Shown here: piece by piece, positions 7,598 to 64,000 of the stretch
Layout of the letters: each line of letters opens with the position of its first letter
How positions within the stretch are numbered: the stretch's first letter is position 1
Assembly: GCA_037131775.1 (NCBI GenBank)
Contig: JBAXQK010000002.1
Span: 87,493 to 151,492, forward strand
Length of the DNA: 64,000 bases
Source of the DNA: Candidatus Uhrbacteria bacterium
GTDB lineage: Bacteria; Patescibacteriota; Patescibacteriia; UBA9934; GWF2-40-263
Direction: 5' to 3'
Notes under the pieces: model-generated
Told to the model about the DNA's origin: nothing
What the model saw: the letters and a program-made list of their open reading frames with translations, nothing else
The model's database searches: none
Position numbers and translations under genes: made by a program

Positions 7598-8149
7598 CTA
7601 CTCGATCGGCTCCAAATAGAACTGTTCTTCGCCAAAATCCTCGTCTTTTTGATCTTCTTTCTTCGGCTCGGCCTCTGCGGCCGACTTTTCCGGTTCCGCC
7701 GTCGCCATCCCCTTCCCCTGTTGATAATTCTCAAACTGTCGCTCCAAGTCCGTCTTTTCAACGTCCGACATCTTCGAAATGTCCCACGTCTCCGATTCCG
7801 ACCCCGCCGGACTCATCGCCTCCCAGATATCGGACGGCGGCGGTGCCTGTCTAGTTTCCCCTCCTTTTTGGAAGGAGGGGTCAGGGGTAGTCGTCGCGAC
7901 GGCAACGCTCGGCGGCCCGACCCTTCCCTCTTCCTCTTCCGGCTCGCAATCATTCCACCATTCTTCGCCGAAGCCAGCTTCAGACGGCAAGCCAGACGAT
8001 TTTTCAACGATTTCCTTAGGAACGACTAGATTTTCGTACTGTTCCAGTCCCATCACCACGTATACGTCGTCCCCGTTCGTGTCCGTCACGACCATCCGAT
8101 CGCCCGTTTTCCGTACCAAATTCAGGATGCGTCGAAGTTGTTTGTCCAT
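7598..8149 (-). CDS. Hypothetical acidic protein (Glu/Asp-rich)
   Basis: 183-aa ORF directly upstream of tuf; low-complexity acidic C-terminal half; no recognisable domain. Confidence 0.45.
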   Translation of the reverse strand: MDKQLRRILNLVRKTGDRMVVTDTNGDDVYVVMGLEQYENLVVPKEIVEKSSGLPSEAGFGEEWWNDCEPEEEEGRVGPPSVAVATTTPDPSFQKGGETRQAPPPSDIWEAMSPAGSESETWDISKMSDVEKTDLERQFENYQQGKGMATAEPEKSAAEAEPKKEDQKDEDFGEEQFYLEPIE

Positions 8150-10857: not shown

Positions 10858-11793
10858 ATGGATCTATCTTCCGCGACACCGCCTCCCACACCTCTTCGCA
10901 TTTCCGAAACCACCCGCGTCATACCATCGACAAGCCCCGTCACGAGCGTCGCGTTCGGACCTCGCGGTAACGTCGCGATGCTCACGGGATCGCGACTGAA
11001 GGAGTACGATGCCGATCGAACGGAAACGAGGATCGTCACGAACGACCTCGGAAACCGGACGTTCGGCTACGATGCCGGTACCGGGTCCCTCCGACTCGAT
11101 CCTCCCAAGGAGGGGCGGGCCGAGGCCGTCGTCGTCACGGACTCGGACGCGCGACGCCGGCTCTCCGCCGTCGGACTGCCGTTCGCGCGAATCCAGCAGG
11201 ATACGATCCGCCTCGGCAAGGACGGGCCGGAATACGTCGCGTGGACCGACTCCAGGACGGGCCCGCTCACCGGCACCGTGTTCTCCGGGCCCGTGCGCGT
11301 CATCCCGAGCGAGGTCGTCGTGCTCGCGGAATCCGACGTCGACGCGCGCGTGATCATGGAGGGAAGTGGCATTCACACGATCCTCCGGACTCCCGACGGC
11401 AGAACCGTGGTCCGGTGCGGGTCAGAGCCGTCCGAATTCCACATTCCTCCGGCCCCGGACCTTTCCACGTGGACGTCGGTCATCCGCACCCGACGGCACG
11501 CCCTCGTATCGGGAATCTACGGTCACATCACGGACCTCCGCCATCCCTGCCGCATCGCCGAGTCTCCCTGGAAGATCATCGGCGACCCGCACCGCCTTCC
11601 CGGAGGCGCGGCGACCGAGGCGCACAACGGCTCCCGGCGCACGCTCATCTGGCTCCACGAGGACGGCTTCGACTGCCTCCCCGCCACGAGCCCGCTCAAG
11701 AGCCTCGTCCGCACCGGCCCGCGCGAGCTCACCGGCTGGCACATGCGCGGCCTCCAGCTCGTCATCCGAACGTACGCGCTCCCCCGCGACTGA
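10858..11793 (+). CDS. Hypothetical protein
   Basis: ORF 10774..11793; composition includes W/Y/H/I unlike the overlapping Arg-rich antisense ORFs; start set at MDLSSATPPP, uncertain. Confidence 0.4.
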   Translation: MDLSSATPPPTPLRISETTRVIPSTSPVTSVAFGPRGNVAMLTGSRLKEYDADRTETRIVTNDLGNRTFGYDAGTGSLRLDPPKEGRAEAVVVTDSDARRRLSAVGLPFARIQQDTIRLGKDGPEYVAWTDSRTGPLTGTVFSGPVRVIPSEVVVLAESDVDARVIMEGSGIHTILRTPDGRTVVRCGSEPSEFHIPPAPDLSTWTSVIRTRRHALVSGIYGHITDLRHPCRIAESPWKIIGDPHRLPGGAATEAHNGSRRTLIWLHEDGFDCLPATSPLKSLVRTGPRELTGWHMRGLQLVIRTYALPRD

Positions 11794-11831
11794 TCTGGTC
11801 GCGGGATTTTTATTGACACCGGATTTCCTTC

Positions 11832-12485
11832 ATGGTTTCCTATCGCTCCGGAGTCCATGCAATGCCCATCTACGACGACCCAAAGGAACCATTCAAAGCC
11901 GCCGCTTCCATCGCCGATCGCATCGACGCGGAAGGGGCGATCTCCCTCGCCGTCATCGACGTGCACCGTGCGCTCGACCTGTACTGGTCGGCGGCAAACC
12001 TGCCGTTCGCCCTCCAGCCGGAAACAACCGGTCGCGGCCACGTGCGGCAGCAGGTCGAGATCTCTCCGCTCTCGTACCTGTCCGGCGAGCACCCGATCGC
12101 CACGCTCGCGCGACGCGTCGTCGCCGACCTTTCCCGCGCGTTCGACTCGCTCGAACGGACGCCCTTTGCCACGCCGTTCGCACCGAACGACATCGTGCTC
12201 CAGCGCTACCAGCCCGGATCGATCGGCATCACGCCGCACCACGACGGAACCAGCCGCGTGAACCTCGTCTGCGTCCTCATGCTCTGGGGCGACGGCGAGT
12301 TCGCCCTCTGCGACGACCGCGCCGGAACGAATCCCCGCCCGATCTTCGCCCCGCCCGGTCACCTCATCCTCATGAAGGCCCCCGGCTTTCGAGGGGCCGA
12401 CCTCGGACCCTTCCACCTCATCTCCCGCATCTCCCGAGGCCGACTGATCCTTGGAATCCGCGAGAGACGCTTCCTGCCGCGTTAA
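11832..12485 (+). CDS. 2OG-Fe(II) oxygenase superfamily-like protein
   Basis: Putative HxD...H facial triad: ITPHHDG (about res 146-149) and PPGHLILM about 47 aa later. Confidence 0.45.
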   Translation: MVSYRSGVHAMPIYDDPKEPFKAAASIADRIDAEGAISLAVIDVHRALDLYWSAANLPFALQPETTGRGHVRQQVEISPLSYLSGEHPIATLARRVVADLSRAFDSLERTPFATPFAPNDIVLQRYQPGSIGITPHHDGTSRVNLVCVLMLWGDGEFALCDDRAGTNPRPIFAPPGHLILMKAPGFRGADLGPFHLISRISRGRLILGIRERRFLPR

Positions 12486-12515
12486 ACACGCGGTTTTTTG
12501 TTATACTGTCCCCGT

Positions 12516-13685
12516 ATGCCCAAACATCTCGCCGACTACGGCTCCGCGCCCGTCGACTTCGTCCGCGGAAACGGGTCCTACGTGTACGACAAGAACGGAA
12601 AGAAGTTCCTCGATTTCCAGACCGGCTGGTGCGTGGGCACCGTCGGATGGAAGAACAAGGAGATGGCCGAGGCGATCTCGGCCCAGGCGCGCGAGGGGTT
12701 CCATGAGCCGCCGTGGTTTCGCGTCGAGCGGCACGAGACGTTCGCGTCGCGCCTCGTCAAGCTCGCGCCGGGAAAGCTCAACCGCGTGTTTCGCGCGTGC
12801 TCAGGGTCCGAGGCGGTCGAGTTCGCCATCAAGGCCGCGCGCGCCGCGACGAAGAAACAGACGGTTGTGACGATCGAAGGCGTGTACCACGGCCACACGT
12901 ACGGTGCGGGATCGGTCGGAAACGCGTTCGGCGGAGTGCTGGAACCGTGCGACGGATTCGCGAAGGTACCGATGCCGAAGAATCAAAAGCAGGAAATCGA
13001 GACGCTCCGCGAGATCGAGGCGCTGTTCGCGCAGGGCGACGTCGCGGCATTCCTGTCCGAGCCGGTATGGACGAACGCCGGATGCTTCATCCCCTCGCCT
13101 GCCTTCTACCCCGCCGTCCAAACGCTTTGCCGCAACTACGGCGTCCTCCTTGCCATGGACGAAGTGGCCACCTGCATGGGCCGGTGCGGCAAAATGTTCG
13201 GATCGGAACTCTGGGGAATCGAGCCCGACATCGTCACGCTCGGCAAATCGTTCACGGGAGGGTACGCGACCATGGCCGCGACGCTGGTCACGGAATCCGT
13301 CTTCAAGAATGCCCGCGGCATCCCGTCGCATCCCACGTTCGGCTGGATGTTCCAGGACCTGGCCGCGGTCGAGAAGAACGTCGAGATCATCATCCGGGAC
13401 CGCCTCGACGAGAACGCGGCGGGCGTCGGCGCCTACCTGCTCGACCTTCTCAAGCCGCTCGAGTCGCTCAAAAAGGTCAAGGAAGTTCGCGGCATCGGCA
13501 TGGTCCTCGCCATCGAGTTCCACCTCCCCGTCGCCGTCCTCGTCGCCGCGAAATGCTACCGCGCCGGCCTGGTCGTCGAGTTCACCGATTCCAAGACCCT
13601 GTTCCTGAGCCCAATGCTCAACCTGAAAAAGTCCGACGCGCGCAAGGGAGCCGAGATCATCCGTGCCGCGTGCGGCCTGAAATAA
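12516..13685 (+). CDS. Class III pyridoxal-phosphate-dependent aminotransferase
   Basis: DEVATCMGRCGKMFG (DEVqTGfGRtG motif), TLGKSFTGG (PLP lysine), GSEAVEFAIKAAR; start at MPKHLADYG. Confidence 0.85.
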   Translation: MPKHLADYGSAPVDFVRGNGSYVYDKNGKKFLDFQTGWCVGTVGWKNKEMAEAISAQAREGFHEPPWFRVERHETFASRLVKLAPGKLNRVFRACSGSEAVEFAIKAARAATKKQTVVTIEGVYHGHTYGAGSVGNAFGGVLEPCDGFAKVPMPKNQKQEIETLREIEALFAQGDVAAFLSEPVWTNAGCFIPSPAFYPAVQTLCRNYGVLLAMDEVATCMGRCGKMFGSELWGIEPDIVTLGKSFTGGYATMAATLVTESVFKNARGIPSHPTFGWMFQDLAAVEKNVEIIIRDRLDENAAGVGAYLLDLLKPLESLKKVKEVRGIGMVLAIEFHLPVAVLVAAKCYRAGLVVEFTDSKTLFLSPMLNLKKSDARKGAEIIRAACGLK

Positions 13686-27111: not shown

Positions 27112-27259
27112 CCCAGGGACTTTAGTCCCGTCCTCCGAGTCGCGACGTTCCCACGATCGGGACTAAAGTCCCTGGGAATACGAGACGCCACTAAAGTGGC
27201 TGGGAAAACGATTTCATAGGGACTTTAGTCCCGTGCGCTTCCCAGGGACTTTAGTCCCG
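27112..27259. repeat. REP array (5 copies/variants of CCCAGGGACTTTAGTCCCG) 3' of the RAYT gene
   Basis: Copies at 27112-27130 (+), 27158-27176 (-), 27188-27204 (variant), 27218-27233 (+), 27241-27259 (+); GGGAC/GTCCC arms form a hairpin. Confidence 0.8.
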
Positions 27260-27791
27260 CCGTGATCCGCGTCGGCAATGACTCAAAGAATTCCTTTTCT
27301 CCCAGCGACATCACTGACGAGATAACATCATCCGCATACTCCTTCCCCTCTCGTACGATCACATAGCGATACGACGAAAATGGCCAGTCGAATAATTCCT
27401 GAAGATCCGTCACGTCGCCATGCTTCAAAGGATTGCCAATGACATATCCACGAACGCGATCGAGCAACGATTCCTTCATCGGAACGAATACGTGATATTC
27501 ACCCCAAACCGGCGACGCGATGTCCACCTGCCGTTTGACCTGAAACGAAACGCCGCCGTTAATCCACTGCAACATCGTAGGGATTACGTCGCTCTTCCCA
27601 AAGCTTCCAAGAAAATGATAGTGGTCCTCCATGATTCCATAGTCGGGACACTCGACGCCGAATTTGACGAACGCTTCCTCGAGGCGAACGCGAAGAAGTT
27701 CGCGGAGGGCGAGATCCTTGAAGATCGGTCGGTGACGATCCGTCGGGACGGTGATGAAGTACCAGGAATCGAGGAGGAAGAAACGAGACAT
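27225..27791 (-). CDS. REP-associated tyrosine transposase (RAYT, IS200/IS605 Y1 family)
   Basis: YFITVPTDRHRP, HuH motif EDHYHFLG, C-terminal YVIGNPLKHGDVTDLQELFDWPFSSYRY (compare E. coli RAYT YIYINPVKHGWVKQVSDWPFSTFH); both gene ends overlap REP copies. Confidence 0.8.
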   Translation of the reverse strand: MSRFFLLDSWYFITVPTDRHRPIFKDLALRELLRVRLEEAFVKFGVECPDYGIMEDHYHFLGSFGKSDVIPTMLQWINGGVSFQVKRQVDIASPVWGEYHVFVPMKESLLDRVRGYVIGNPLKHGDVTDLQELFDWPFSSYRYVIVREGKEYADDVISSVMSLGEKEFFESLPTRITAGLKSLGSARD

Positions 27792-27908
27792 ACTCGACGG
27801 GACTAAAGTCCCTGGGAATTCTTGACGCCACTGAAGTGACTGGGAATTACGTTTACGCTCTGACAGGATTCACAGGGACTTTAGTCCCGTCGGGTTTCCC
27901 AGGGACTT
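27790..27908. repeat. REP array (4 copies) 5' of the RAYT gene, in direct orientation relative to the 3' array
   Basis: 27790-27808 (-), 27820-27836 (variant), 27865-27881 (+), 27890-27908 (+); unit order mirrors 27158-27259. Confidence 0.8.
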
Positions 27909-39163: not shown

Positions 39164-39859
39164 CTATGCTCGCGTCGCCATAAACGTCGCGACGATGGCG
39201 GCGGTTTCGGCGCGGAGGATTCTTGGGCCGAGGTTGGCGGGGGTGAAGGTGGCGGCGCGCATGAGGTCGAGCTCGGCGGGGTCCCAGCCGCCCTCGGGGC
39301 CGATGAAGAGGCCCGTCGAGCCCGACGGGACTAAAGTCCCTGTGAAGTCAGGCGAGCCGGGCTCGAAGAGAAAGTTCGTCGCGTTCGATTTCGCGTGGAC
39401 GATGGCGAGTCTCAGCGACATAGGCTCGACAATCTCGGGAACGACGCCGCGGCCGCTTTGCTCGCAGGCTTCCGTCGCGATCTTTTGAAGGCGGTCGAGC
39501 TTCACGCCGAGCTTGATCGTGCGCGACGAGATGACGGGGATGATCGCGGCGACTCCGCACTCGACGGCCTTCTGGACGACGAGTTCGAAGTTCTCGCGCT
39601 TGAGCACGGCGCAGTAGAGCGTGACTTTGGTTGCGCTCTCGGTGTCGACGGCGCGACGGTCGATGATCTTCGCGACGATCGTCTTGTCGTCGGACACAAC
39701 CTGCACGGTCGCCTCCATCCCCTTCCCATCGCAGACAATGAACGGGTCTCCCGCCTCCATCCGAAACACGTTCCGAATCTGGTTCGTCGCCTCCCGATCG
39801 GAGATGACGAGTTCGTCGGCGGAGAGGTCGAGGTCGAGAATGAATCGGTGGAGGCGCAT
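39164..39859 (-). CDS. rsmE: 16S rRNA (uracil1498-N3)-methyltransferase RsmE, with an in-frame REP insertion
   Basis: MRLHRFILDL..., IGPEGGW motif; a 26-nt REP (TTCACAGGGACTTTAGTCCCGTCGGG, identical to 27862-27887) encodes DFTGTLVPSG between LFEPGS and IGPEGG. Confidence 0.8.
   Translation of the reverse strand: MRLHRFILDLDLSADELVISDREATNQIRNVFRMEAGDPFIVCDGKGMEATVQVVSDDKTIVAKIIDRRAVDTESATKVTLYCAVLKRENFELVVQKAVECGVAAIIPVISSRTIKLGVKLDRLQKIATEACEQSGRGVVPEIVEPMSLRLAIVHAKSNATNFLFEPGSPDFTGTLVPSGSTGLFIGPEGGWDPAELDLMRAATFTPANLGPRILRAETAAIVATFMATRA
39326..39342. repeat. REP copy embedded in rsmE coding sequence
   Basis: GGGACTAAAGTCCCTG on plus strand; same family as the RAYT-flanking REPs. Confidence 0.7.
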
Positions 39860-40791: not shown

Positions 40792-40894
40792 TGAAGACTC
40801 CTGAAGTTGTGAGTGGGAAAAATATATCACAGAATTGACGAAATGTCAATGGATTCAGGCGGATTTCGAAAAAAATACTAACAAAAACGACCGT

Positions 40895-41773: not shown

Positions 41774-41819
41774 CACGACGACCACCCCTGACCCCTCCTC
41801 CCTATGAGGAGGGGGAAAC
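41774..41819 (+). repeat. Hairpin repeat family 2, copy 1
   Basis: CACGACGACCACCCCTGACCCCTCCTCCCTATGAGGAGGGGGAAAC; stem CCCCTCCTC/GAGGAGGGG, loop CCTAT. Confidence 0.8.
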
Positions 41820-41867
41820 TTAGGAAGAAAAGAGACCCAGGACGCGGCGCGAGGCCGGGTCGGAGGG

Positions 41868-45601: not shown

Positions 45602-46089
45602 ACAGCAGAGATCTCCGTTTCCCCATCATTTTCCTTACACGTTCCCCCTCCTGATAGGCAGGAGGGGTCAGGGGTGGTCGACGAGATTTTCGTGATGGTC
45701 ATCGCGCCGTCTTGGATCTTTTTAACGATCCTCGCTGGCAATCCAACTTCGATTTTCCTCAAGACCTTCTCCATATCCCCATACACGTCCCCGTTCGCGA
45801 CTCGCACGACGACGATCCCCTTCGACTCGACATACTTCGTCCGCGCAATGTCACTCTCCCGTTCGCCTTCCTCAAAATGACTCTGGCCATCGACCTCGAC
45901 GACGAGGCGAGCTTCAGGGCAATAAAAGTCGACAACGTACGGACCGATTCCGTGTTGACGGCGGAATTTTAAACCATGGAATTTTCGGCCCATGAGAAAT
46001 GACCATAATATTCCCTCGGCCGGCGATGCCTCGTTGCGGAGGGTTTGTCGGAGTGCTTTTTGGGTGGTGAGGTTGTAGAGAAGTTGCAT
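45598..46089 (-). CDS. DUF559 endonuclease-domain protein (Vsr/restriction-endonuclease-like fold)
   Basis: LRQTLRNEASPAEGILWSFL...FRRQHGIGPYVVDFYCPEARLVVEVDGQSH...GIVVVRVANGDV is the DUF559 consensus; C-terminal 45 aa read through repeat copy 2. Confidence 0.7.
   Translation of the reverse strand: MQLLYNLTTQKALRQTLRNEASPAEGILWSFLMGRKFHGLKFRRQHGIGPYVVDFYCPEARLVVEVDGQSHFEEGERESDIARTKYVESKGIVVVRVANGDVYGDMEKVLRKIEVGLPARIVKKIQDGAMTITKISSTTPDPSCLSGGGTCKENDGETEISAV
45641..45683 (-). repeat. Hairpin repeat family 2, copy 2 (inverted; variant stem CTG/CAG)
   Basis: GTTCCCCCTCCTGATAGGCAGGAGGGGTCAGGGGTGGTCGACG. Confidence 0.8.
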
Positions 46090-46104: not shown

Positions 46105-46196
46105 GCGCGACGACCGCCCCTTATCCCCTCCTGCCTATCAGGAGGGGGAACGTGGTTGAAAAATCGTTTCCCCTCCTGATAGGCAGGAGGGGAAAC
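46105..46196. repeat. Hairpin repeat family 2, copies 3 (forward, 46105-46152) and 4 (inverted, truncated, 46166-46196) as a tail-to-tail pair
   Basis: GCGCGACGACCGCCCCTTATCCCCTCCTGCCTATCAGGAGGGGGAACG ... CGTTTCCCCTCCTGATAGGCAGGAGGGGAAAC. Confidence 0.8.
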
Positions 46197-46225
46197 TTGA
46201 AAAGGGAGACGAATTACGACTGCCA

Positions 46226-47635
46226 TCATACCGCCCCGAACCACCTGACCACGTGCAAGATCACCGACGACACCGCGATTGCCGGGACGGCGACGATCGT
46301 TCCGACTGAGGGGACGAGGAACCCGGCCGCGAGGGCGATTCCCGTCATGGCCATGAGCATAGGGACAAGCGGGAGGACGATGAGGTTGACCACGGGCGAC
46401 AGGAGCGACACCGAGCCGAAGTGCCAGAGCATGATGGGGAGCGTCGCGACGATCGCGGCCATGCTTCCCGCGAAGGACTTGCGGAGCTCGAATGCCTCGG
46501 GGATGAATTTGCAACGTTCCTCGATCCTCGACGACCAGCCGAGCATCGCGGCAGTCGCGACGAACGACAATTGGAATCCAACGTCGTCGAGAAGCAACAG
46601 CGGGTTCCACATGAGCATCGCAGCAAGCGCGAGGAGCGTTACGTTGAGGATCGACGGCTTGCGTCGAATCAAAAACCCGACGAGCGTCATCGCGCCCATG
46701 ATGCCGGCGCGAACGACGGCGGCCGAGGCGCCGGCGACGATGACGTAGGAGACGAGGAGCGCGGCGGTAAGGTACGCGCCCTTGCGGCGACCGAGGACGG
46801 TGTGGGTGATGAAACCGAGGAAGACCATCGAGAACAGCGAGACGTTGAACCCGGACGCGGCGAGGATGTGCGAGGTTCCCGTCGCGGAGAAATCGTCCTG
46901 GAGGTCCTTTGAGAGCGTCGAGCTTCCGCCAAAAATGAGTCCCGCGAGGAACGACGCATGCGGCTCGGGGACGATCATGCGGAGGCGGCCGATCACGACG
47001 CGCTTCACCGTCAACAACGTCGCGACGATCCCGCCGCTCGACGGTTTTACGTCGACGAACTTCGGAGAAAAACACAGCGCGAGCACGCCCTGGCTGCGGA
47101 GATACTTGTCGTACGCGAACGTGCCGATCTGCGTCGGAACCTGAGGCCTGCACTCGAACGTGAGCGTGTCGCCGTACGCGATGGGCGGGAACGCGTCGAG
47201 CCAGACTTGGAGTTTTCCGTCGACCGAGGCGTCGGCGACCGAAAGACCGTCGAGAATGACGCGCTGTCCCGTGCCCGTCTCAACGACCTCGGACGAGACC
47301 GTCCCAGCGATCCGCGACGACCGGTCGGCCGCGTCCGCGATAGTCGGGACGTTCGAAGGGACGAGTGCTTGGCCGTAGCGCCAGGCGCCGAGGAGGAAGA
47401 GGGCGAGGCACAGGGAAACAAGAAGGCGCGACGACCACCCCTGACCCCTCCTCCCTATGAGGATGGGGAACGTGACGACGAATACTGCGATTAGCAGCGC
47501 GCGGTCGAACCCGAGAAACAACGGCCCGACCAATATTCCAAACGAAAAACAGACCATCGCCGCCGCGAATGACTTCGACGGCGAGCGGACGATCTTAGAG
47601 AGCAGGGACATACGCAGGAAAGAGACAGGATACAA
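46226..47635 (-). CDS. ComEC/Rec2 competence membrane channel domain protein (DUF4131 plus Competence domain)
   Basis: 469 aa polytopic membrane protein typical of ComEC N-terminal/central regions; contains repeat copy 5 in-frame (FPILIGRRGQGWSS). Confidence 0.75.
   Translation of the reverse strand: MYPVSFLRMSLLSKIVRSPSKSFAAAMVCFSFGILVGPLFLGFDRALLIAVFVVTFPILIGRRGQGWSSRLLVSLCLALFLLGAWRYGQALVPSNVPTIADAADRSSRIAGTVSSEVVETGTGQRVILDGLSVADASVDGKLQVWLDAFPPIAYGDTLTFECRPQVPTQIGTFAYDKYLRSQGVLALCFSPKFVDVKPSSGGIVATLLTVKRVVIGRLRMIVPEPHASFLAGLIFGGSSTLSKDLQDDFSATGTSHILAASGFNVSLFSMVFLGFITHTVLGRRKGAYLTAALLVSYVIVAGASAAVVRAGIMGAMTLVGFLIRRKPSILNVTLLALAAMLMWNPLLLLDDVGFQLSFVATAAMLGWSSRIEERCKFIPEAFELRKSFAGSMAAIVATLPIMLWHFGSVSLLSPVVNLIVLPLVPMLMAMTGIALAAGFLVPSVGTIVAVPAIAVSSVILHVVRWFGAV
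47426..47472 (+). repeat. Hairpin repeat family 2, copy 5, inside the ComEC-membrane ORF
   Basis: GCGCGACGACCACCCCTGACCCCTCCTCCCTATGAGGATGGGGAACG (one stem mismatch). Confidence 0.8.
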
Positions 47636-49056: not shown

Positions 49057-49235
49057 ACAGTTCGACTGCGCTCAGTGTGGATAGTGTGGGAAGGGTAACA
49101 AAAGGCTTGGAAAACTACAAACTGACGTAGTTTTTTATGTGGTTTGCCACCACACCGCCATTCCGAAAGGGCGGGGCGACCGCATGGTGTTGCGCAATTG
49201 TTTTTGGCTGATGCAGCTCCTTTTCCTTTCCCTCA

Positions 49236-49282
49236 CGTTTCCCCTCCTGATAGGCAGGAGGGGTCAGGGGTGGTCGTCGCGC
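49236..49282 (-). repeat. Hairpin repeat family 2, copy 6 (inverted)
   Basis: CGTTTCCCCTCCTGATAGGCAGGAGGGGTCAGGGGTGGTCGTCGCGC. Confidence 0.8.
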
Positions 49283-52902: not shown

Positions 52903-55620
52903 ATGGACAAGAAGGGCAAGCCACCTGAGGGCGCAATGGAGGAGACGACGGCGGTCGACGACGCGCGACGACCACCCCTGACCCCTCCTCCCTATGAGGA
53001 GGGGAAACGTAGGGTATCGAGGAAGACCGTCGAGAGTGCCGCGGCGATTACGGCGGCGGCGATGGGGATTGCGCATGCGGTGATTGAGGTTCCGAAGGAG
53101 GGACCGACGGCGGACGAGTCGTCCGAGGCGAAGGGCGAAGATGCCGAACATCCGGAATGGAAATACAACGCGGTCGGCGAAATCGTGCGCGAGACCGTCT
53201 TTCACGACGAGAACTCGACGGGCGGCGTGCAAGACCAGTACGTCAGCCTGTTCAAGACGGTCTTTTCGTCGCCGAAGGGAACGTGCGTCTATTACGACAC
53301 GCTGGGCAACGTCCTGCTGGTCGACAAGATGCCGGACGTCCTGGCGCAACTGGCCGAGTCAATCGAGAAGGGCGCCGGCACGAAAAAAGAGCTGGACGCG
53401 ATGACGAAGACCTGGAAAGACAAGGTCCAGGCATGGCACAACGCGAACCGAAAGAAAATCTCGGCCGTGACCGTGACGCCCTCCGACTACGACGACAAGT
53501 GGGCATATCCGTTCGTCGCGAGCCCCGTGCTCAAGAACATGCCCGCCGAATCGGAAGCGACCTCCCTGATCGAGGGGATTCGTGAACGGCTCGTGGAAAA
53601 GACGAAGAGTCCGGAGAATGGCCCGTCTTACTTCGACGGCGCGGAGCGTTCGATCTACGACGGCATCTCCGAGATTGCGAAAGCGTACGACATTCCGCTT
53701 GCCATCGCGCTTGGCATCGCCGCGAACGAAAGCACGTTCAACCGGACGGCCCACTCGGATGCCGGCGCGAACGGAATCTATCAGGTTACGGAAAAAGGGT
53801 TCGGCGACGCCAAGGCGTACATCGCCAAGCATCCCGAGCTCGGGGCGGCCGTCCGATCGGGATCCATCGGGTCGTACGAGGACTCCTGGAAGGACCGCTT
53901 CGTCAGCGCCGAGCTGTGCTGCGCGTACTATCTGCTCATCCAGGGGCGCATGCGCAAGAAGCTCGACGCGCTCGAGACGCGCCTGCTCACGCTCGACCCG
54001 ACCTTTCCCGTGGGAACGTTCCTCGACATCGCCACGATCAATTCCTACAACGCCGGCGACGGGCGCATGCGTGACTGCATCGACCGGTTCCTGTCCCTTT
54101 CCGACGACGAGATCGTTGCACACATCGGCGATCCGGAATACGGCGCGGACGTCTGGCTCGGCGTGGTCGGCCTCTCGTACGGGCTCACGGACGACGGAAA
54201 ATTTTCGAACGTGGGAAAGGACAGCTTCCTGTATCCGCAAAAAATCCTCGCCATGGGATCGCTCATCATGGACGCGCAGAACGCGATGTCCGCGGTCGAC
54301 CGCGACCGGGAGGACGAGGGCGTCGACGCAGGCGACTTCGTTCCCGACTCGGCGACGCGCCGCGGTTTCTGGAGGAACCTGTCCGTCGCCACCGGCATTG
54401 CGGGCGTCCTTGGCGGAATATTTTCCGGCAACGGCGCGGTCCGCGACATTCGCTCGGAACCTCTGAACACAAGCGTGAGCAGACGGAATTTGCTGAAAGG
54501 GACGGCAAAGGCCACGGCCGCGGTCATCGGAGTCACCTCCCCCGTCATTCGCGCCGGGGCGGACTGGCTCGATTCGCGCCCTGTGACGGAGACTCCGCCT
54601 GAAGTGCCTCCCGTGTCCCCGGAACAGCCGTACGCTCCCGTCGAGCTTGAGCCACTGAAGGACGTGGAAGCGGCCGCGACCGTCTCGCTGGACGCGGTGT
54701 ACGAGACGCTTTTGGAACGAGCCGCGCAGAAGAAAACGGGATGGACCCCCGAGGAATCCAAGCGAAACAACAACCTCTTTCCCGTTCCAGAAAATCGCAG
54801 GATGCTCAAAGAGCGATTCATCGCCATGTTTGGAAAGGACCTGGTAAAGAAATTCAAGGCATCCGAAGGCGACACGTTCGAAAGCCGCGCGCATCTGTAC
54901 GACGAGGCTCGCGCCCAGCAGGTCGCCTACATCGAACGGCAGGTTTCCACGGGAAGCTTCGTTCGTCTTGCGGAAGACGACCCGACGAAGCCGTACTTCT
55001 GCGAACAGGTCGACTCGCTCTCGGGTATCAAGAACAACCCGGACGGACTCTTTCTCCGCAAGGAATTTATTCCGGTGATCGGAACGCTGATTGAACTCGT
55101 CAATTACCAGATCGACAAGTTCAATGCCAACAATCTGTACTACGGCATCCATGGGGACAGTTTCCCGACCCTTCCGTACATCTCCGCCTTGAAAATCAGC
55201 GGAGCCCTCCGATCGACGCTTACCACGAAGGGACAGTTCGCGTCTGGAAAAGGAAAGGACACGACTCCCGGGATGACTCCGCATTGGCTTGGAAGCGCAA
55301 TGGACATCTCTTCGTTCGCGACCGTGCCGCACAAGGACAAGAAGTCGGGAAAGATGGTGGGTCCGATGGGACACATGGCCCGGCTGGATGGCGACCTACT
55401 GGCAAAGAAAGGCGGACGGGTCATCGTTCGTCGCGGAGAAAAGCTAAACAACGGCGGCGACGGGGCAACGACCCGCGACATACTCACGCACATGATCGGC
55501 CGCGCGCTTTTCGCGATGCGCGACCCGCTGATGGAACTGTACGGGATTGAGATTCAGCCAAAGTGGGAGAATCCTGCCAAGAACTGGCACGTCGCGCTGG
55601 AGGCAAAGGATGCGAAGTAA
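52903..55620 (+). CDS. Large multidomain cell-wall hydrolase: lytic transglycosylase (SLT) domain plus C-terminal M15 (VanY-like) peptidase domain
   Basis: AANESTFNRTAHSDAGANGIYQV is the SLT catalytic motif; C-terminal HWLGSAMDIS (HxxGxAxD) and NWHVALE (WH); one internal TM; true start may lie downstream of the repeat. Confidence 0.65.
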   Translation: MDKKGKPPEGAMEETTAVDDARRPPLTPPPYEEGKRRVSRKTVESAAAITAAAMGIAHAVIEVPKEGPTADESSEAKGEDAEHPEWKYNAVGEIVRETVFHDENSTGGVQDQYVSLFKTVFSSPKGTCVYYDTLGNVLLVDKMPDVLAQLAESIEKGAGTKKELDAMTKTWKDKVQAWHNANRKKISAVTVTPSDYDDKWAYPFVASPVLKNMPAESEATSLIEGIRERLVEKTKSPENGPSYFDGAERSIYDGISEIAKAYDIPLAIALGIAANESTFNRTAHSDAGANGIYQVTEKGFGDAKAYIAKHPELGAAVRSGSIGSYEDSWKDRFVSAELCCAYYLLIQGRMRKKLDALETRLLTLDPTFPVGTFLDIATINSYNAGDGRMRDCIDRFLSLSDDEIVAHIGDPEYGADVWLGVVGLSYGLTDDGKFSNVGKDSFLYPQKILAMGSLIMDAQNAMSAVDRDREDEGVDAGDFVPDSATRRGFWRNLSVATGIAGVLGGIFSGNGAVRDIRSEPLNTSVSRRNLLKGTAKATAAVIGVTSPVIRAGADWLDSRPVTETPPEVPPVSPEQPYAPVELEPLKDVEAAATVSLDAVYETLLERAAQKKTGWTPEESKRNNNLFPVPENRRMLKERFIAMFGKDLVKKFKASEGDTFESRAHLYDEARAQQVAYIERQVSTGSFVRLAEDDPTKPYFCEQVDSLSGIKNNPDGLFLRKEFIPVIGTLIELVNYQIDKFNANNLYYGIHGDSFPTLPYISALKISGALRSTLTTKGQFASGKGKDTTPGMTPHWLGSAMDISSFATVPHKDKKSGKMVGPMGHMARLDGDLLAKKGGRVIVRRGEKLNNGGDGATTRDILTHMIGRALFAMRDPLMELYGIEIQPKWENPAKNWHVALEAKDAK
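52963..53009 (+). repeat. Hairpin repeat family 2, copy 7 (in the 5' part of the large hydrolase ORF)
   Basis: GCGCGACGACCACCCCTGACCCCTCCTCCCTATGAGGAGGGGAAACG. Confidence 0.8.
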
Positions 55621-57698: not shown

Positions 57699-57828
57699 GG
57701 TGGCCTCCTTTGGATAGGGGGGATCAACAAGATTCTGTGGTTCAGCGGAGGGGTAGGATATCATAAAAATGGGGTTTTGTCAATGGATTCGCCTATTTCC
57801 GAATAAAAAGAACGCCTATGAGTAGGCG

Positions 57829-58918: not shown

Positions 58919-59015
58919 TGAGGACTCCGTTGTTGATTGTTGTGAGATGACGAAGAGGGCCCGCCCAGATATCTCTGGATCTGACGGAAAAGAATGATAT
59001 CACAAAAATGGCTCT

Positions 59016-59040
59016 TTGTCAATGCAAAAACCGCCTTTTT
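59016..59040. terminator. Bidirectional hairpin terminator
   Basis: AAAAACCGCC-TTTTT-GGCGGTTTTT. Confidence 0.5.
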
Positions 59041-60501: not shown

Positions 60502-62541
60502 TTACCGCAGATCAATTCCTTCGATGTTGAGAATGCGCGTCTTGGATTCCTCGTAGTACGTTTCCAGGATGTCGCCGACTTCGATCTTGGCCTTGCCCTG
60601 ATACTCGATGCCGCACTCGGAGCCGCCGTTCACTTCCTTCACGGACTGCTTGCCGTACTGCAACTTCACGATCTCCCCCTCGCCGATGACTTCCGGCTCG
60701 CCGGTGACCGGGGACATGCGCATCGCGCGCAGCTTGCATCCGACGCGAATCTTCTCGCCCAGGATCTTGCCGCCGATGACGCCGCCCTTGTCGAGCTTCT
60801 TGAACACCGCGAGCACCTCGATCTTTCCGGTCTCGGTGATGATCTGCTCGTTCGGAAGCATCTTCTGCAGGCGCGCGAGGATGTCCTCGAACAGCTTATA
60901 GATGACCTCGAACTGGAGGATCTCCACGTTCTTATCGCGGCCGTGCGAGGCGGCGCTGGCGGTCGGCTTCACGTCAAAGGCATACACGATGGAGTGCGTC
61001 GCCTCGGCCTTGTCCACGTCCACGTCGGTGATGTTTCCGAGACCCTTCGCGACCACTTCGACGCCGACCAGGTCGTGCTTCACCTTCTCAAGCATGCCGA
61101 GCACCGCCTCGAGCGAACCGAGCACGTCGGCGCGCAGGATGATGTTGAGCAATTTTTTGCCTTCCTTGTTCTCCGGCTTGGAAATCGTCGAGACGGTGGA
61201 TTCCACGGCCGACGTCACCGGCTTGCGCATGCGCGCCAGGGCCTTCTCGTCCTCCGGAACCTCGATCACGTCTCCCACCGCCGGGGCGACTTTAAATCCA
61301 AGAATCTTCACCGGCATGCTGGGCGCCGCGTCCTTCACGATCTCGCCCTGCCAGTTCTTCATCATGCGCACGCGGCCGAACAGCGCGCCGCGAATGCCGA
61401 TGGTATCGCCCATGCGAAGCGTTCCGGCCTGGATGAGCGCCGTCGCGACCGGGCCTTCGCCCTTGTCGATGTGCGACTCGATGATCGTTCCGGCCGCGCG
61501 GCGGTCCGGGTTTGCCACGATCTTGGCCTGTTCCATCTCGTTGACGAGAAGCAGCGCGTCCAAGAGCTCGTCCATCCCCTGCCCCGTCTTCGCGGACACC
61601 GGGATGATCATCGTCTTTCCACCCCACTCTTCCGGCAACAGGTTGAGCTCGGCGAGCTGTCCCTTCACGCGCTCCGGATTGGCATCGGGCTTGTCGATCT
61701 TGTTGAGCGCGACGACGTACGGAAGACCGGCGGCCTTGATGATGTCCACGGCCTCCTTGGTCTGCGGCTGCACGCCGTCGTCGGCGGCGACCACGAGAAT
61801 GGCGATGTCGGCGACCTTGGCTCCGCGCGAACGCATGACGGTAAACGCCTCGTGTCCAGGAGTGTCGATAAACGTAATCAGCTTCTCCTTGCGGACGACC
61901 TGGTACGCGCCGATGTGCTGCGTGATTCCTCCGGCCTCGGATTCCATCACGTTGGTGGTGCGGATCGAGTCGAGGATCTTCGTCTTTCCATGGTCGACGT
62001 GGCCCATCACCACGATGACCGGCGGACGTGCCTTCAGGTTCTCCTGCTTCTCGCCGGCGAACAGCGCCGTCAAACGCGACGCGCCCTCGTCATCCTTCGC
62101 GTCGTCGGCAGGCTTTCCAACCTGCGGCTCGGCCTTCACGCCGAGGTCGCCGGACACGATCGCGGCCGTTTCAAAATCGATGCGTTCGTTCAACGAGGCC
62201 AAGATGCCGTTCTTCATCAGTTCGCGCATCACCTTCGCCATCGGGATGTCGATGAGCGCCGCGAAGTCGCGCACGGTCATGACCGCCGGAAGCATGACGG
62301 TCCGAATGACCGCCGGAGCATCCCCAGCCTTCTGAGCCGCCCCGCGGTTCAATTGCTCGTCGCGAATCGCCCCCATTCGCTCACGTCGCTTCATTTCGGC
62401 CCATGCCGCAACAATGCGATTCGCGTCGCGATCGTTCACCTTCACGGAGTTGCGCCCATATCCCAAGCCCAACGTGGGAAGTTTCTCGCGCAGCTCATCG
62501 GTAGGAACCTTCAGTTTACGGGCGATTTCTGTAATGTTCAT
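60502..62541 (-). CDS. infB: Translation initiation factor IF-2
   Basis: 679 aa; G-domain [17 protein letters not shown]...DTPGH; C-terminal IF-2 domains. Confidence 0.97.
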   Translation of the reverse strand: MNITEIARKLKVPTDELREKLPTLGLGYGRNSVKVNDRDANRIVAAWAEMKRRERMGAIRDEQLNRGAAQKAGDAPAVIRTVMLPAVMTVRDFAALIDIPMAKVMRELMKNGILASLNERIDFETAAIVSGDLGVKAEPQVGKPADDAKDDEGASRLTALFAGEKQENLKARPPVIVVMGHVDHGKTKILDSIRTTNVMESEAGGITQHIGAYQVVRKEKLITFIDTPGHEAFTVMRSRGAKVADIAILVVAADDGVQPQTKEAVDIIKAAGLPYVVALNKIDKPDANPERVKGQLAELNLLPEEWGGKTMIIPVSAKTGQGMDELLDALLLVNEMEQAKIVANPDRRAAGTIIESHIDKGEGPVATALIQAGTLRMGDTIGIRGALFGRVRMMKNWQGEIVKDAAPSMPVKILGFKVAPAVGDVIEVPEDEKALARMRKPVTSAVESTVSTISKPENKEGKKLLNIILRADVLGSLEAVLGMLEKVKHDLVGVEVVAKGLGNITDVDVDKAEATHSIVYAFDVKPTASAASHGRDKNVEILQFEVIYKLFEDILARLQKMLPNEQIITETGKIEVLAVFKKLDKGGVIGGKILGEKIRVGCKLRAMRMSPVTGEPEVIGEGEIVKLQYGKQSVKEVNGGSECGIEYQGKAKIEVGDILETYYEESKTRILNIEGIDLR

Positions 62542-63557
62542 GCAGGGGGAGTATATCGGGATCGGGGGTTGGAGTCAATGGATTCGGAGACGCGGCGTGC
62601 CAGCCTTTGCCCGTTGCCATGTGCCAGGAGTCCTTGGTACGACGCAATGGCCAACTCTCCCGCGCCACCATTGATCGCGGCGAACATGCGCGCCTCCGTC
62701 GAATGTCGAAGAACTCGATGGTCCGGAAAGTGGACCCAACCTAGGAAATCAACGCCGGATGCGAACGTCCGGATCTCGACCTTGTCGGGATGGAGTTCAA
62801 GTTGGAGCTCGCGCGACAGGAAGTCGCGGATGCAGTCCAGGGCGACGACAAGGTAATCGCGATCGTGGAACAGTAATGCGAAGTCGTCGGCGTAACGAAC
62901 ATAGTGACGCACGCTCAAGCGACACTTCACGTACTGGTCGAGCGCATCCATATAGACGTTCGCAAACAACTGCGACGTCAGGTTGCCGAGCGGCAGCCCC
63001 TTGCCCGACTGGACATGAAAACTCCGCACGATCGTTTCCAGGAGCGCGACGGTGCGCGTGTCGGCGATCCGCCCGCCGACGATTCGCAAGAGGACGTCGT
63101 GATCGATGGACGCGAAGAACTTCCGAATGTCGCATTTCAAGACCCAAGCGGTTCTACGATGGTTGCGCGAAATTTGTCCCGCAAACATCCGAAACCGATC
63201 CATCGCCGCGTGCGTTCCCTTCTCGTCGCGGCAGGAAAACGAGTCCGAGATGAACGTCCGGTCGAAAGCGGGGTATAATTGCCGGTGGATGGCACGGTGC
63301 AGAACACGGTCCGCGACGGTCGCCTTGTGAATCTGCCTCGGCTTCGGGTCGGAGATGGCGAACGCACGGTACGGCCCGTGGCGGTACGTCCCGTTTGCCA
63401 GCCGTCGGTGAAGCTGAATCAGATTTCCCATCAGACCAAACGCAAACGCTTGCGTATCTTCCCTCCCGCGCTTCCCGATGACGAATTCTTCCCATGCGCC
63501 TAACAAATTCTCGAGCGAGATAATTTCCTCATAGCTATGCAAGTCCAACGTTCCCAT
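62538..63557 (-). CDS. Diversity-generating retroelement (DGR)-type reverse transcriptase
   Basis: RT motifs: RAFAISDPKPRQIHKATVADRVLHRA (1-2), GKGLPLGNLTSQLFANVYMD (motif 4 with the DGR-specific LGxxxSQ, compare Brt LPIGNLTSQ), YVRYADDFALL (YxDD); about 339 aa, no maturase/En domain; stop overlaps infB start (ATGA). Confidence 0.85.
   Translation of the reverse strand: MGTLDLHSYEEIISLENLLGAWEEFVIGKRGREDTQAFAFGLMGNLIQLHRRLANGTYRHGPYRAFAISDPKPRQIHKATVADRVLHRAIHRQLYPAFDRTFISDSFSCRDEKGTHAAMDRFRMFAGQISRNHRRTAWVLKCDIRKFFASIDHDVLLRIVGGRIADTRTVALLETIVRSFHVQSGKGLPLGNLTSQLFANVYMDALDQYVKCRLSVRHYVRYADDFALLFHDRDYLVVALDCIRDFLSRELQLELHPDKVEIRTFASGVDFLGWVHFPDHRVLRHSTEARMFAAINGGAGELAIASYQGLLAHGNGQRLARRVSESIDSNPRSRYTPPA
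62550..62578 (-). promoter_or_regulatory. Promoter candidate for infB embedded in the RT 3' end (TTGACT-17-TATACT, near-leaderless)
   Basis: Minus-strand GAATCCATTGACT...TATACT about 8 nt before the infB ATG; shares a GAATCCATTGACA-17-TATnnT motif with sites at about 15610, 25740, 40850, 57780 and 59010. Confidence 0.35.
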
Positions 63558-63972
63558 GCCAAAGATGCTACCCCCCCCCCGCAATTTCTTGCCAGTGCTC
63601 CAAAAGCTGAAGTCGGCCTACCTCGCCTGGTTTGACGACTACGCCAGGCTCCCAAAGGTCCACAGGTATTCCATCGGCACGCGCGTCGACAATCTGCTCG
63701 TGGAATGCATCGAGTCGGTAAGCGAGGCTGCGTTCACTCCGGGGATGGACAAGGCTCCGTGCATCCGCCTTGCCGCGCGAAAGCTCGACACGGTAAAGCT
63801 ATTCCTCATGATCCTGTGGGAAGCGCATTCGATCGACCAGGGCCGATACATTGAGCTTTCCGTTCGGTTCGACGAAATCGGCCAGAACCTCGGCGGGTGG
63901 CTCGGCAGCGTTCTCAAGCCGAAGCCGGAGCCGAAACAAAACTCCCCGGAGCCGGTGTCCGAGGAGAAATGA
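63556..63972 (+). CDS. Avd-like accessory variability determinant (four-helix-bundle protein), divergent from the RT
   Basis: LPKVHRYSIGTRVDNLLVECIES...RKLDTVKLFLMILWEAHSI...FDEIGQNLGGWLG parallels Bordetella phage Avd (IPRKHGVAREMFL...LAMLRFWLRF...AEVGRILGSWI); start ATG shares a CATG with the RT start. Confidence 0.7.
   Translation: MPKMLPPPRNFLPVLQKLKSAYLAWFDDYARLPKVHRYSIGTRVDNLLVECIESVSEAAFTPGMDKAPCIRLAARKLDTVKLFLMILWEAHSIDQGRYIELSVRFDEIGQNLGGWLGSVLKPKPEPKQNSPEPVSEEK
63571..63580. repeat. C10 homopolymeric tract inside the 5' end of the Avd-like ORF, upstream of the RT start
   Basis: cta-cccccccccc-gc read directly; encodes PPPR at residues 6-9. Confidence 0.9.
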
Positions 63973-64000
63973 AGAGGGTTGCGGCGGGCGCGGAAACGGG

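Follow-up and report, generated by a model that had tools for sequence, protein, structure and literature searches.

What is a pure run of ten cytosines doing in the narrow interval where two divergent genes of a diversity-generating retroelement (DGR) begin, and might changes in its length decide whether these genes are expressed? The question is raised by a 64,000-nt stretch of DNA from Candidatus Uhrbacteria bacterium (assembly GCA_037131775.1, contig JBAXQK010000002.1, positions 87,493 to 151,492 of the forward strand), hereafter called the window, close to the end of which the genes for a reverse transcriptase (RT) and for the accessory factor Avd start head to head. An earlier note on this DNA, made from the letters alone, had proposed that slipped-strand mispairing at the tract turns avd on and off and thereby controls mutagenic retrohoming, or else that the tract is an artefact of sequencing or assembly. 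The analysis reported here favors the former: rather probably, the tract is a slipped-strand phase switch on avd, and in many relatives also on the RT gene, that gates mutagenic retrohoming. The proposal of a switch is supported by the occurrence of C8, C9 and C10 within one species and by the presence of a repeat at the same site in nearly all related loci; from these data we infer the effect on retrohoming.

A conserved, length-variable repeat between avd and RT

The ten C residues occupy positions 63571-63580 of the plus strand (G10 on the RT strand), in the context ...CCCATGCCAAAGATGCTA-C10-GCAATTTCTTGCCAGTG..., and form a simple-sequence repeat whose hypervariability emerges from the comparison of tract lengths described below. 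At this length, the avd open reading frame (ORF) extends from 63556 to 63972 on the plus strand and encodes 138 residues from ATG 63556 or 135 residues from ATG 63565. Read from ATG 63556, it begins ATG CCA AAG ATG CTA CCC CCC CCC CGC, and the tract thus provides codons 6-8 and the first base of codon 9; the earlier claim of exactly ten C within Avd codons 6-9 is confirmed from the sequence. The RT ORF of 339 residues runs in the opposite direction (62538-63557, minus strand), and a gene caller picks the same start. The tetranucleotide CATG at 63555-63558 contains both the avd ATG (63556-63558, plus strand) and the RT ATG (63557-63555, minus strand), as had been noted before; this shared CATG is kept in L003, a relative with 85% RT identity, but it is absent as a family-wide feature. 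The tract covers positions -14 to -23 relative to the RT ATG, so the proximity first described was correct, and its span of "about 15-25 nt" can be made exact. In the 64-kb window it is the sole homopolymer of at least 8 nt, the second-longest G/C run being of 7. A first-order Markov model nevertheless produces a G/C run of at least 10 in 12.5% of simulated windows, and therefore run length alone is not decisive and the argument is carried by comparative data.

When the RT was used to scan contigs of genomes and metagenomes, 160 loci with RT identities of 53-85% were recovered, of which 141, representing 122 distinct junctions, have a detectable avd gene. In every related locus for which upstream DNA was available and avd detectable (the same 141), avd is divergent from RT and arranged head to head with it. 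These loci are phylogenetically related, and the counts that follow are not independent. A simple repeat is found at the same site, just 5' of the conserved "LLPVLQ" helix of Avd, in 139 of the 141 loci, including almost all relatives with only 53-64% RT identity; the comparison with related genomes that had been suggested as a check thus shows the tract to be anything but lacking. Among the 122 distinct junctions, the tract is C6 in 1, C7 in 6, C8 in 10, C9 in 31, C10 in 44, C11 in 10, C12 in 11, C13 in 1, C14 in 2 and G8 in 1, with a mode at C9/C10, and in at least five junctions poly-C gives way to repeated dinucleotides, namely (TC)n, (GA)n or (AC)n/(CA)n. The loci have GC contents of 37-67%, and G/C runs of at least 8 nt number only five in 698 kb of flanking DNA, which makes the tract more than 1000-fold enriched over its flanks. 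Because a pure C run is maintained in AT-rich genomes and is exchangeable for other simple repeats, these features point to selection for repetitiveness, not for prolines or for a specific motif. Selection for a poly-proline peptide was considered in its own right and ruled out by the use of pure CCC even at 37% GC, by the random phase of the tract (see below) and by the dinucleotide substitutes.

The only two related loci that lack any repeat, L094 and L135, carry an in-frame ATG 4-5 codons ahead of "LPVVE" and look like "locked-on" derivatives. An unusual arrangement is found in L027 (CAZSKX010000001.1), in which tracts of C13 and C14 lie 85 nt apart with duplicated flanks (GGATACCCATACGG...TTATCG), as a result of duplication of the junction; no path from an ATG is open in any frame of this junction. 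In L012, G18 and C8 runs 140 nt apart are found about 4.2 kb from the junction and may mark another repeat-controlled locus.

Tract length also differs between near-identical genomes. Thus, L013 has C12 and L089/L108 have C11, with 0 mismatches over 3580 nt, and L011 has A-C10 where L088 has C12, with 4 mismatches over 3963 nt. L069 and L162 differ by 3 nt at the tract, with 2 mismatches over 2809 nt, and L021/L097 differ from L107 by 3 nt beside the tract, with 0-1 mismatches elsewhere. At least six contigs end inside the repeat or within a few dozen bases of it (L086, L100, L109, L122, L126 and L143). For the species of the window itself, the metagenome scan with the RT returned no close relative, and the close relatives came from a look-up of the Avd cluster, one member of which (P0002, from an NCBI metagenome-assembled genome, MAG) was not traced to DNA. 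Aligned with the window, the contigs of this species show 97.4-99.6% identity and a single gap, at the tract: it is C9 in JGI 3300050249, SRA ERR2681674 and SRA SRR35932259 (L163/L164/L165) and C8 in JGI 3300050250 (L166), which with C10 in the window gives C9 three times, C8 once and C10 once in five samples. In the more distant L003, it is C7. A single uniform length and relatives without the tract, the outcome that the earlier note had named as speaking against a switch, is thus the opposite of what was found. The artefact that it had also envisaged does not hold up either, as the tract is internal to the 90.5-kb ENA contig from which the window derives and recurs in more than 130 independent assemblies.

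The same variability is visible in protein records. The 90% cluster of the window's Avd comprises members of 135, 127, 125, 144 and 127 residues, that is, avd has been called with 125, 127, 135 and 144 codons in one species, and the RT is annotated with 297 residues in one NCBI MAG (P0008), starting 42 residues late, and with 339 residues in two other records. Annotation pipelines mis-call avd genes of this kind.

Reading frames on the two strands of the junction

Where avd translation begins can be approached from the opposite strand. The N-terminus of the RT harbors a conserved His residue in the motif xH[S/T]Y. Frames were anchored by tblastn, and the tests based on this motif cover 84 of the 122 junctions. 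The His codon is CAT in 84 of 84 loci with the motif, and the other His codons of the same RTs are 664 CAT to 605 CAC (52% CAT; Fisher 5e-23). As this codon is always CAT, the antisense ATG is invariant. In the window it corresponds to RT His7 (CAT 63539-63537), which gives a family-conserved candidate avd start at ATG 63537-63539, with an ORF that spans 63537-63635 on the plus strand. From the conserved ATG to the tract the distance is 15-55 nt, with a mode of 37, and the frame of this ATG contains a stop in a single locus, being open up to the tract in 83 of 84. To describe the other frames, the junctions are divided into class A (71, including the window), in which RT has an in-frame ATG or GTG after the tract and before its conserved N-terminus, and class B (51, about 40%), in which no start codon follows the tract in the direction of RT. 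Stops before the tract are present in the other two frames of 41/49 and 41/49 class A loci and of 34/35 and 21/35 class B loci. RT codons that read as stops on the antisense strand (TTA, CTA and TCA) account for 0/76 and 1/26 codons in the overlap and for 16-19% in the rest of the RT. Because the antisense ATG is invariant, the frame behind it is open, and the tract-less loci L094 and L135 carry an ATG in frame, translation of avd most probably starts upstream of the tract, which would then be coding on the avd strand.

In 38 of the 122 junctions, about one third, some ATG leads through an open path into the tract and shares the frame of the Avd core, and the avd/RT phase, when counted without assumptions, is uniform, with 21/27/23 junctions in class A and 13/17/21 in class B. 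The flanks thus appear to have evolved as if the in-frame state were used, yet about two thirds of the sampled genomes are out of frame. Random phase combined with constrained flanks is characteristic of a contingency locus or of decoding that does not depend on frame. Two further patterns were set aside: the seeming scarcity of the "on" phase in class B (3/34) was dropped, as the assumption-free count gives 13/51, and the agreement in frame between RT-side and avd-side ATGs in class B was discounted, both being codon-aligned antisense His codons whose agreement is geometric.

In the lineage of the window, ORF modelling predicts a different outcome for each phase. At C7, C10 or C13, ATG 63556 and ATG 63565 are in frame with the Avd core, and at C6, C9 or C12 it is the conserved ATG 63537, the product predicted for C9 having 144 residues and matching database protein P0004. 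At C8, C11 or C14, no avd start is in frame. When the tract is C10, the ORF from ATG 63537 is out of frame with Avd and ends after 32 codons at TGA 63633-63635. This lineage is thus predicted to have two translatable phases and one dead phase, the candidate N-termini of Avd being MQVQRSHAKDATPP...; MPKMLPPP... or MLPPP...; and M-PVLQ.... The notion that any change of one base would frameshift Avd consequently stands for the gain of one C, as C11 leaves no start in frame, but not for its loss, since C9 brings ATG 63537 into frame and does not silence the gene. As for ATG 63565, put forward earlier as a possible rescue start, it is in the same frame as ATG 63556 and also upstream of the tract, and it rescues nothing.

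On the RT strand, a hexamer of the form xAnnnT abuts the tract in 29 of 66 class A poly-C loci versus 9% at control offsets, and in 22 of these 29 loci the first in-frame ATG or GTG comes after a gap of exactly 7 nt. The window follows this pattern, with G10-TAGCAT-CTTTGGC-ATG: the hexamer TAGCAT (63565-63570, minus strand) directly adjoins the G tract, 7 nt ahead of the RT ATG. It resembles the -10 box of a leaderless RT mRNA, in which case the tract would be located in the promoter spacer. A weak and speculative -35-like sequence, CTGGCA (63590-63595, minus strand), can be read 19 nt upstream of TAGCAT at G10; the spacing would be 18 nt at G9 and 17 nt at G8. Of the proposal that length changes alter the RT 5' untranslated region, the position of the tract upstream of the RT ATG is retained, but the tract looks like part of a promoter spacer instead. 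A role of the G tract as the Shine-Dalgarno sequence of RT was ruled out, the modal spacing being 13 nt and variable.

Class B loci have a different organization. Their first 18 avd codons contain 7.1% antisense-stop codons versus 25.1% in the rest of avd (p 8e-10), and no such depletion is seen in class A, with 18.6% versus 15.8%. Similarly, the codon-aligned antisense frame is closed in 13/51 class B loci versus approximately 31/51 for the other frames. From these codon statistics, the RT ORF of class B evidently begins beyond the tract, which would be read as glycines. If the RT ORF crosses the tract in this manner, one slip would shift avd and RT together.

A slippage switch and its rivals

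The mechanism that we propose is the following. The C10 tract would be a hypermutable simple-sequence repeat placed in the head-to-head overlap of avd and RT and, on the avd strand, between the start codons and the four-helix core of Avd. Slipped-strand mispairing during replication would change its length by one or more bases, and this length would determine if the Avd core shares its frame with any start codon. Within the lineage of the window, ATG 63556 or 63565 would serve at C7, C10 and C13 and ATG 63537 at C6, C9 and C12, and Avd would be off at C8, C11 and C14. In the model DGR, Avd is required for cDNA synthesis, and therefore tract length would gate mutagenic retrohoming in a stochastic and heritable manner. 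Changes in length would probably also alter the geometry of the RT promoter, as the G tract abuts the -10-like box, and in the approximately 40% of relatives whose RT ORF appears to run through the tract, a single slip would shift both genes. Switching would be expected to take place within populations, with consequences for the levels of the Avd and RT proteins and for DGR activity. A broader version of this proposal, according to which nearly all DGRs of the TR-(avd)-RT type in the candidate phyla radiation (CPR) are phase-variable, with slips toggling Avd and often RT such that most cells are off and a minority on, has in our estimate an even chance of being correct.

Several observations weigh against such a switch. 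In the window, the conserved start is out of frame at C10, and avd would be on only by virtue of the lineage-specific ATGs 63556 and 63565, neither of which is preceded by a Shine-Dalgarno sequence. Just 3' of the tract, TTG 63589 and GTG 63595 are in frame with avd and were chosen by gene callers in the C8 and C9 contigs, and an avd start beyond the tract is conceivable in this lineage, although many relatives (e.g., L004, L008 and L017) have no TTG or GTG start codon at that place. About two thirds of the assembled genomes would be avd-off, a high proportion for an element with signs of activity. The variation in length was observed between samples, and homopolymer miscalls could contribute to some of the differences of one base. 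The p-values overstate the independence of related loci. Finally, a scan of 63300-63800 for the sigma-70 consensus found no full promoter, and across loci longer tracts were not accompanied by shorter flanks, which leaves the RT-promoter part of the proposal weak.

The main rival is decoding that does not depend on frame, by which RNA polymerase slippage, or +1 slippage of tRNA-Pro at CCC-C, would reach the Avd frame whatever the length of the DNA; slippage might occur during a poly-proline stall, and the tract would then be a constitutive attenuator that keeps Avd scarce. The sequence CCC-C is a known +1 frameshift site, from work on tRNA-Pro, m1G37 and EF-P, and all frames of a C run read CCC (Pro). 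The uniform phase over 122 junctions is as expected if frame is irrelevant, and recoding would explain it without most elements being off; moreover, the reading frame of the conserved ATG stays open as far as the tract whatever the phase, and the elements at out-of-frame loci are still intact. What recoding does not account for is the DNA length polymorphism itself, nor does it fit the (TC)n, (GA)n or (CA)n repeats at no fewer than five junctions, which have in common with poly-C their propensity for replication slippage but not poly-proline or the slipperiness of CCC-C. Transcriptional slippage is best documented for A/T runs, which further argues against this form of it at a C run. On balance we regard recoding as unlikely in place of a heritable switch, but the two could coexist.

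A slippage switch acting through the frame of avd is also to be compared with roles for the tract that leave this frame untouched. The tract might mainly tune the RT promoter as a spacer, Avd being started 3' of it at TTG 63589 or GTG 63595. The G(n)-TAnnnT-N7-ATG layout of 22 loci, including the window, would be in keeping with this idea, as would the spacing of 17/18/19 nt that the weak CTGGCA yields at G8/G9/G10 and the TTG or GTG starts taken by gene callers in C8/C9 contigs. However, a -10 box abuts the tract in only about one fifth of the junctions, whereas almost all have the tract; there is neither length compensation nor a promoter in the consensus scan, many relatives have no start codon at all 3' of the tract, and the invariant antisense ATG with its specifically open frame would be left unexplained. 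This makes a promoter role at the expense of the avd frame improbable. It is more improbable still, to the point of being very hard to defend, that the tract acts in cis, as a fixed element of the DGR reaction or of its transcripts, such as a stop or pause site for the transcript of the template repeat (TR) or a binding site for protein or RNA, and that its length varies as a side effect. Its position is strictly conserved, and TR is transcribed toward RT with inverted avd between them, such that a transcript that continued would meet the G tract before RT. Yet the tract is replaced by unrelated dinucleotide repeats at some junctions and is lost completely in L094 and L135, with in-frame fusion, and the locus has no relevant Rfam match. 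Furthermore, it is located about 400 nt from TR, far beyond the spacer RNA of roughly 140 nt of the model DGR (bioRxiv 10.1101/2023.10.23.563531). Least of all do we credit a neutral mutational oddity or an artefact without any role. Homopolymers of this length are error-prone in sequencing, several contigs break at the tract, and the Markov frequency given above is not negligible, but the occupation of the homologous site in 139/141 loci, which come from many different studies and assemblers and cover 37-67% GC, the more than 1000-fold enrichment over flanks and the clear constraint on the flanking ORF structure leave it next to no room.

The retroelement, its surroundings and related systems

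The assignment of the locus to the DGRs deserves comment, as profile searches gave mixed results. The RT matches Pfam RVT_1 (E 3e-22) and contains LGNLTSQ (GNLTSQ) and YADD, which we take to be DGR-type motifs. Among NCBIfam models, it displays a sub-threshold similarity to group II intron RTs and matches no DGR-specific RT model, and its assignment to the DGR type rests on context, namely the adjacent avd gene and pair of template and variable repeats (TR and VR). The Avd ORF matches NCBIfam DivGenRetAVD with E 7.6e-13 and 48.7 bits, below the cut-off of 80, in an alignment of residues 12-116 with profile positions 1-103 that spans the whole profile; its core begins at residue 12 (the L of LPVLQ, TTG 63589), directly 3' of the tract. 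Similarly, it scores 29.8 bits against Pfam bAvd, below the cut-off of 40, and this family is matched by 16 of 16 Avd homologues tested (best E 6.6e-15). A profile search of solved structures with the Avd alignment returned no relevant match.

No TR/VR pair was found within the 64-kb window; it is located just past its end and can be followed on the continuation contig L002, in which the window coordinate equals the L002 coordinate + 53564. TR (L002 10409-10574, 166 nt) starts right after the avd stop, and the window ends 28 nt into it (63973-64000, minus strand), its sense being that of the RT strand. VR (L002 10904-11069, 166 nt) lies at the 3' end of the gene for a 227-residue protein (ORF at L002 10902-11585, minus strand), of which it makes up the last ~55 codons; this target protein has no match in Pfam or NCBIfam. 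TR and VR differ at 13 positions, 11 of which are A in the TR sense (changed to C, G or T), the sense being that of RT; the other two are at the 3' end, outside the mutagenised part. The adenine mismatches and the gene order, target-VR, TR, inverted avd and RT, therefore identify the locus as a DGR. The closest genome being that of Ca. Uhrbacteria, it is a chromosomal DGR of this organism with the TR-(avd)-RT layout, architecture B3, which has been reported for ~90% of CPR DGRs (Wu et al., 2018, PMC5758913). Judging from the 11 A-specific mismatches, the DGR is probably active now or was so recently. An ORF of 105 codons at L002 10350-10667 (from 63914 of the window onward, minus strand) is TR read as protein and probably not a gene.

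Next to the target gene, L002 has genes for a MazE-like antitoxin, a PIN-domain protein and a DUF433 protein (11777-12733), and the related contig L166 has a Fic-domain gene at this site. At the other end of the DGR, the stop codon of RT and the start codon of infB share bases in ATGA (TGA 62540-62538, ATG 62541-62539, minus strand), and it is unusual for a DGR to lie directly upstream of, and to overlap, this essential translation-factor gene. A good promoter-like sequence, TTGACT-N17-TATACT (62578-62550), is present in the 3' end of RT and ends 8 nt upstream of the infB ATG; the infB mRNA would accordingly have almost no leader. The promoter-like sequence falls within one copy of a 40-nt repeat family (57746-57785, 58985-59024, 62541-62580, 40812-40851 and L002 11705-11744) of the form TTGACA-N17-TATnnT on the minus strand, of which one copy precedes the DGR target gene; judged by its motif, the family looks like a shared strong promoter type ahead of several genes. 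Elsewhere in the window, a palindromic element, CCCCTCCT-loop-AGGAGGGG, with conserved flanks occurs in about eight copies, in one set at 41776-41829, 46109-46162, 47429-47482 and 52966-53019 and in a second at 7851-7896, 45638-45683, 46163-46208 and 49234-49279; these may be hairpins or terminator-like repeats located between genes. A tandem-like arrangement is seen for the short repeated hairpins GGGACTAAAGTCCC and GCCACTAAAGTGGC at 27158-27206, 27770-27849 and 39302-39349, where TGGGAA comes after each.

CPR bacteria are a DGR-rich and largely uncultured group, and to our knowledge little has been established about the regulation of DGR activity. If avd and RT were gated by a repeat, this would account for a risky mutator being silent most of the time and yet at hand, and the proposal predicts that VR heterogeneity in sequencing reads should follow the phase of the tract. 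If the proposal is correct, the tract is a second-order evolvability switch, previously undescribed for any DGR, and reconstitution of CPR DGRs as tools for protein diversification would need a tract fixed in frame. A dual-coding overlap with an invariant antisense start codon is, moreover, an unusual gene arrangement in itself. Repeat-mediated phase variation, DGRs and the B3 layout are each already known. Full-text literature searches, not covering Paul et al. 2017 (Nat Microbiol) and one 2026 preprint, revealed no description of a repeat tract at a DGR, of a head-to-head avd/RT overlap or of DGR phase variation.

The B3 DGRs described by Wu et al. (2018, PMC5758913) share with this locus the gene order, the orientation, the host group and the A-specific TR/VR differences. 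Neither a homopolymer nor an overlap of the avd and RT starts nor phase variation is described in their main text; the words "promoter", "divergent" and "antisense" are absent from it, and its two occurrences of "poly" are unrelated to a tract. The DGR of the Bordetella phage BPP-1 (avd-TR-brt) likewise combines an RT, a TR/VR pair and a four-helix-bundle Avd that is required together with the RT, but its spacer RNA lies between TR and brt, where here inverted avd separates TR from RT. All parts of the BPP-1 element are on one strand, and we know of no repeat tract at its avd.

The closest parallels to the tract itself are the intragenic contingency loci, such as the poly-G tracts of surface-structure genes in Campylobacter jejuni and the poly-G/C tracts of pilC and lgt in Neisseria. 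In these systems too, a pure G/C run of ~7-14 nt, with a mode of 9-10, is found near the 5' end of an ORF, near-identical genomes differ in its length, and frames are apparently random. Unlike in those loci, the gated gene here codes for an accessory factor of targeted hypermutation and not for a surface structure or modification, the host belongs to the CPR, and the tract is set in the head-to-head overlap of two genes. The location of the repeat immediately upstream of a -10-like box is reminiscent of the promoter-spacer switches of fim2/fim3 in Bordetella pertussis (poly-C) and porA/opc in Neisseria meningitidis (poly-G/C), and its location between two divergent genes recalls the TA repeats of hifA/hifB in Haemophilus influenzae; as in these, a change of one nucleotide would alter the spacing of the -35 and -10 boxes. 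In contrast to them, the promoter is only proposed here, with neither compensation of spacing nor a consensus -35 box, and the tract is also likely to be coding on the opposite strand. Finally, the system resembles phasevarions, in which slippage in a single phase-variable DNA methyltransferase gene toggles a system with wide consequences, except that the effect here would be the hypermutation of one target protein and not a change of expression driven by the methylome; if the proposed switch operates, one diversity generator would control another.

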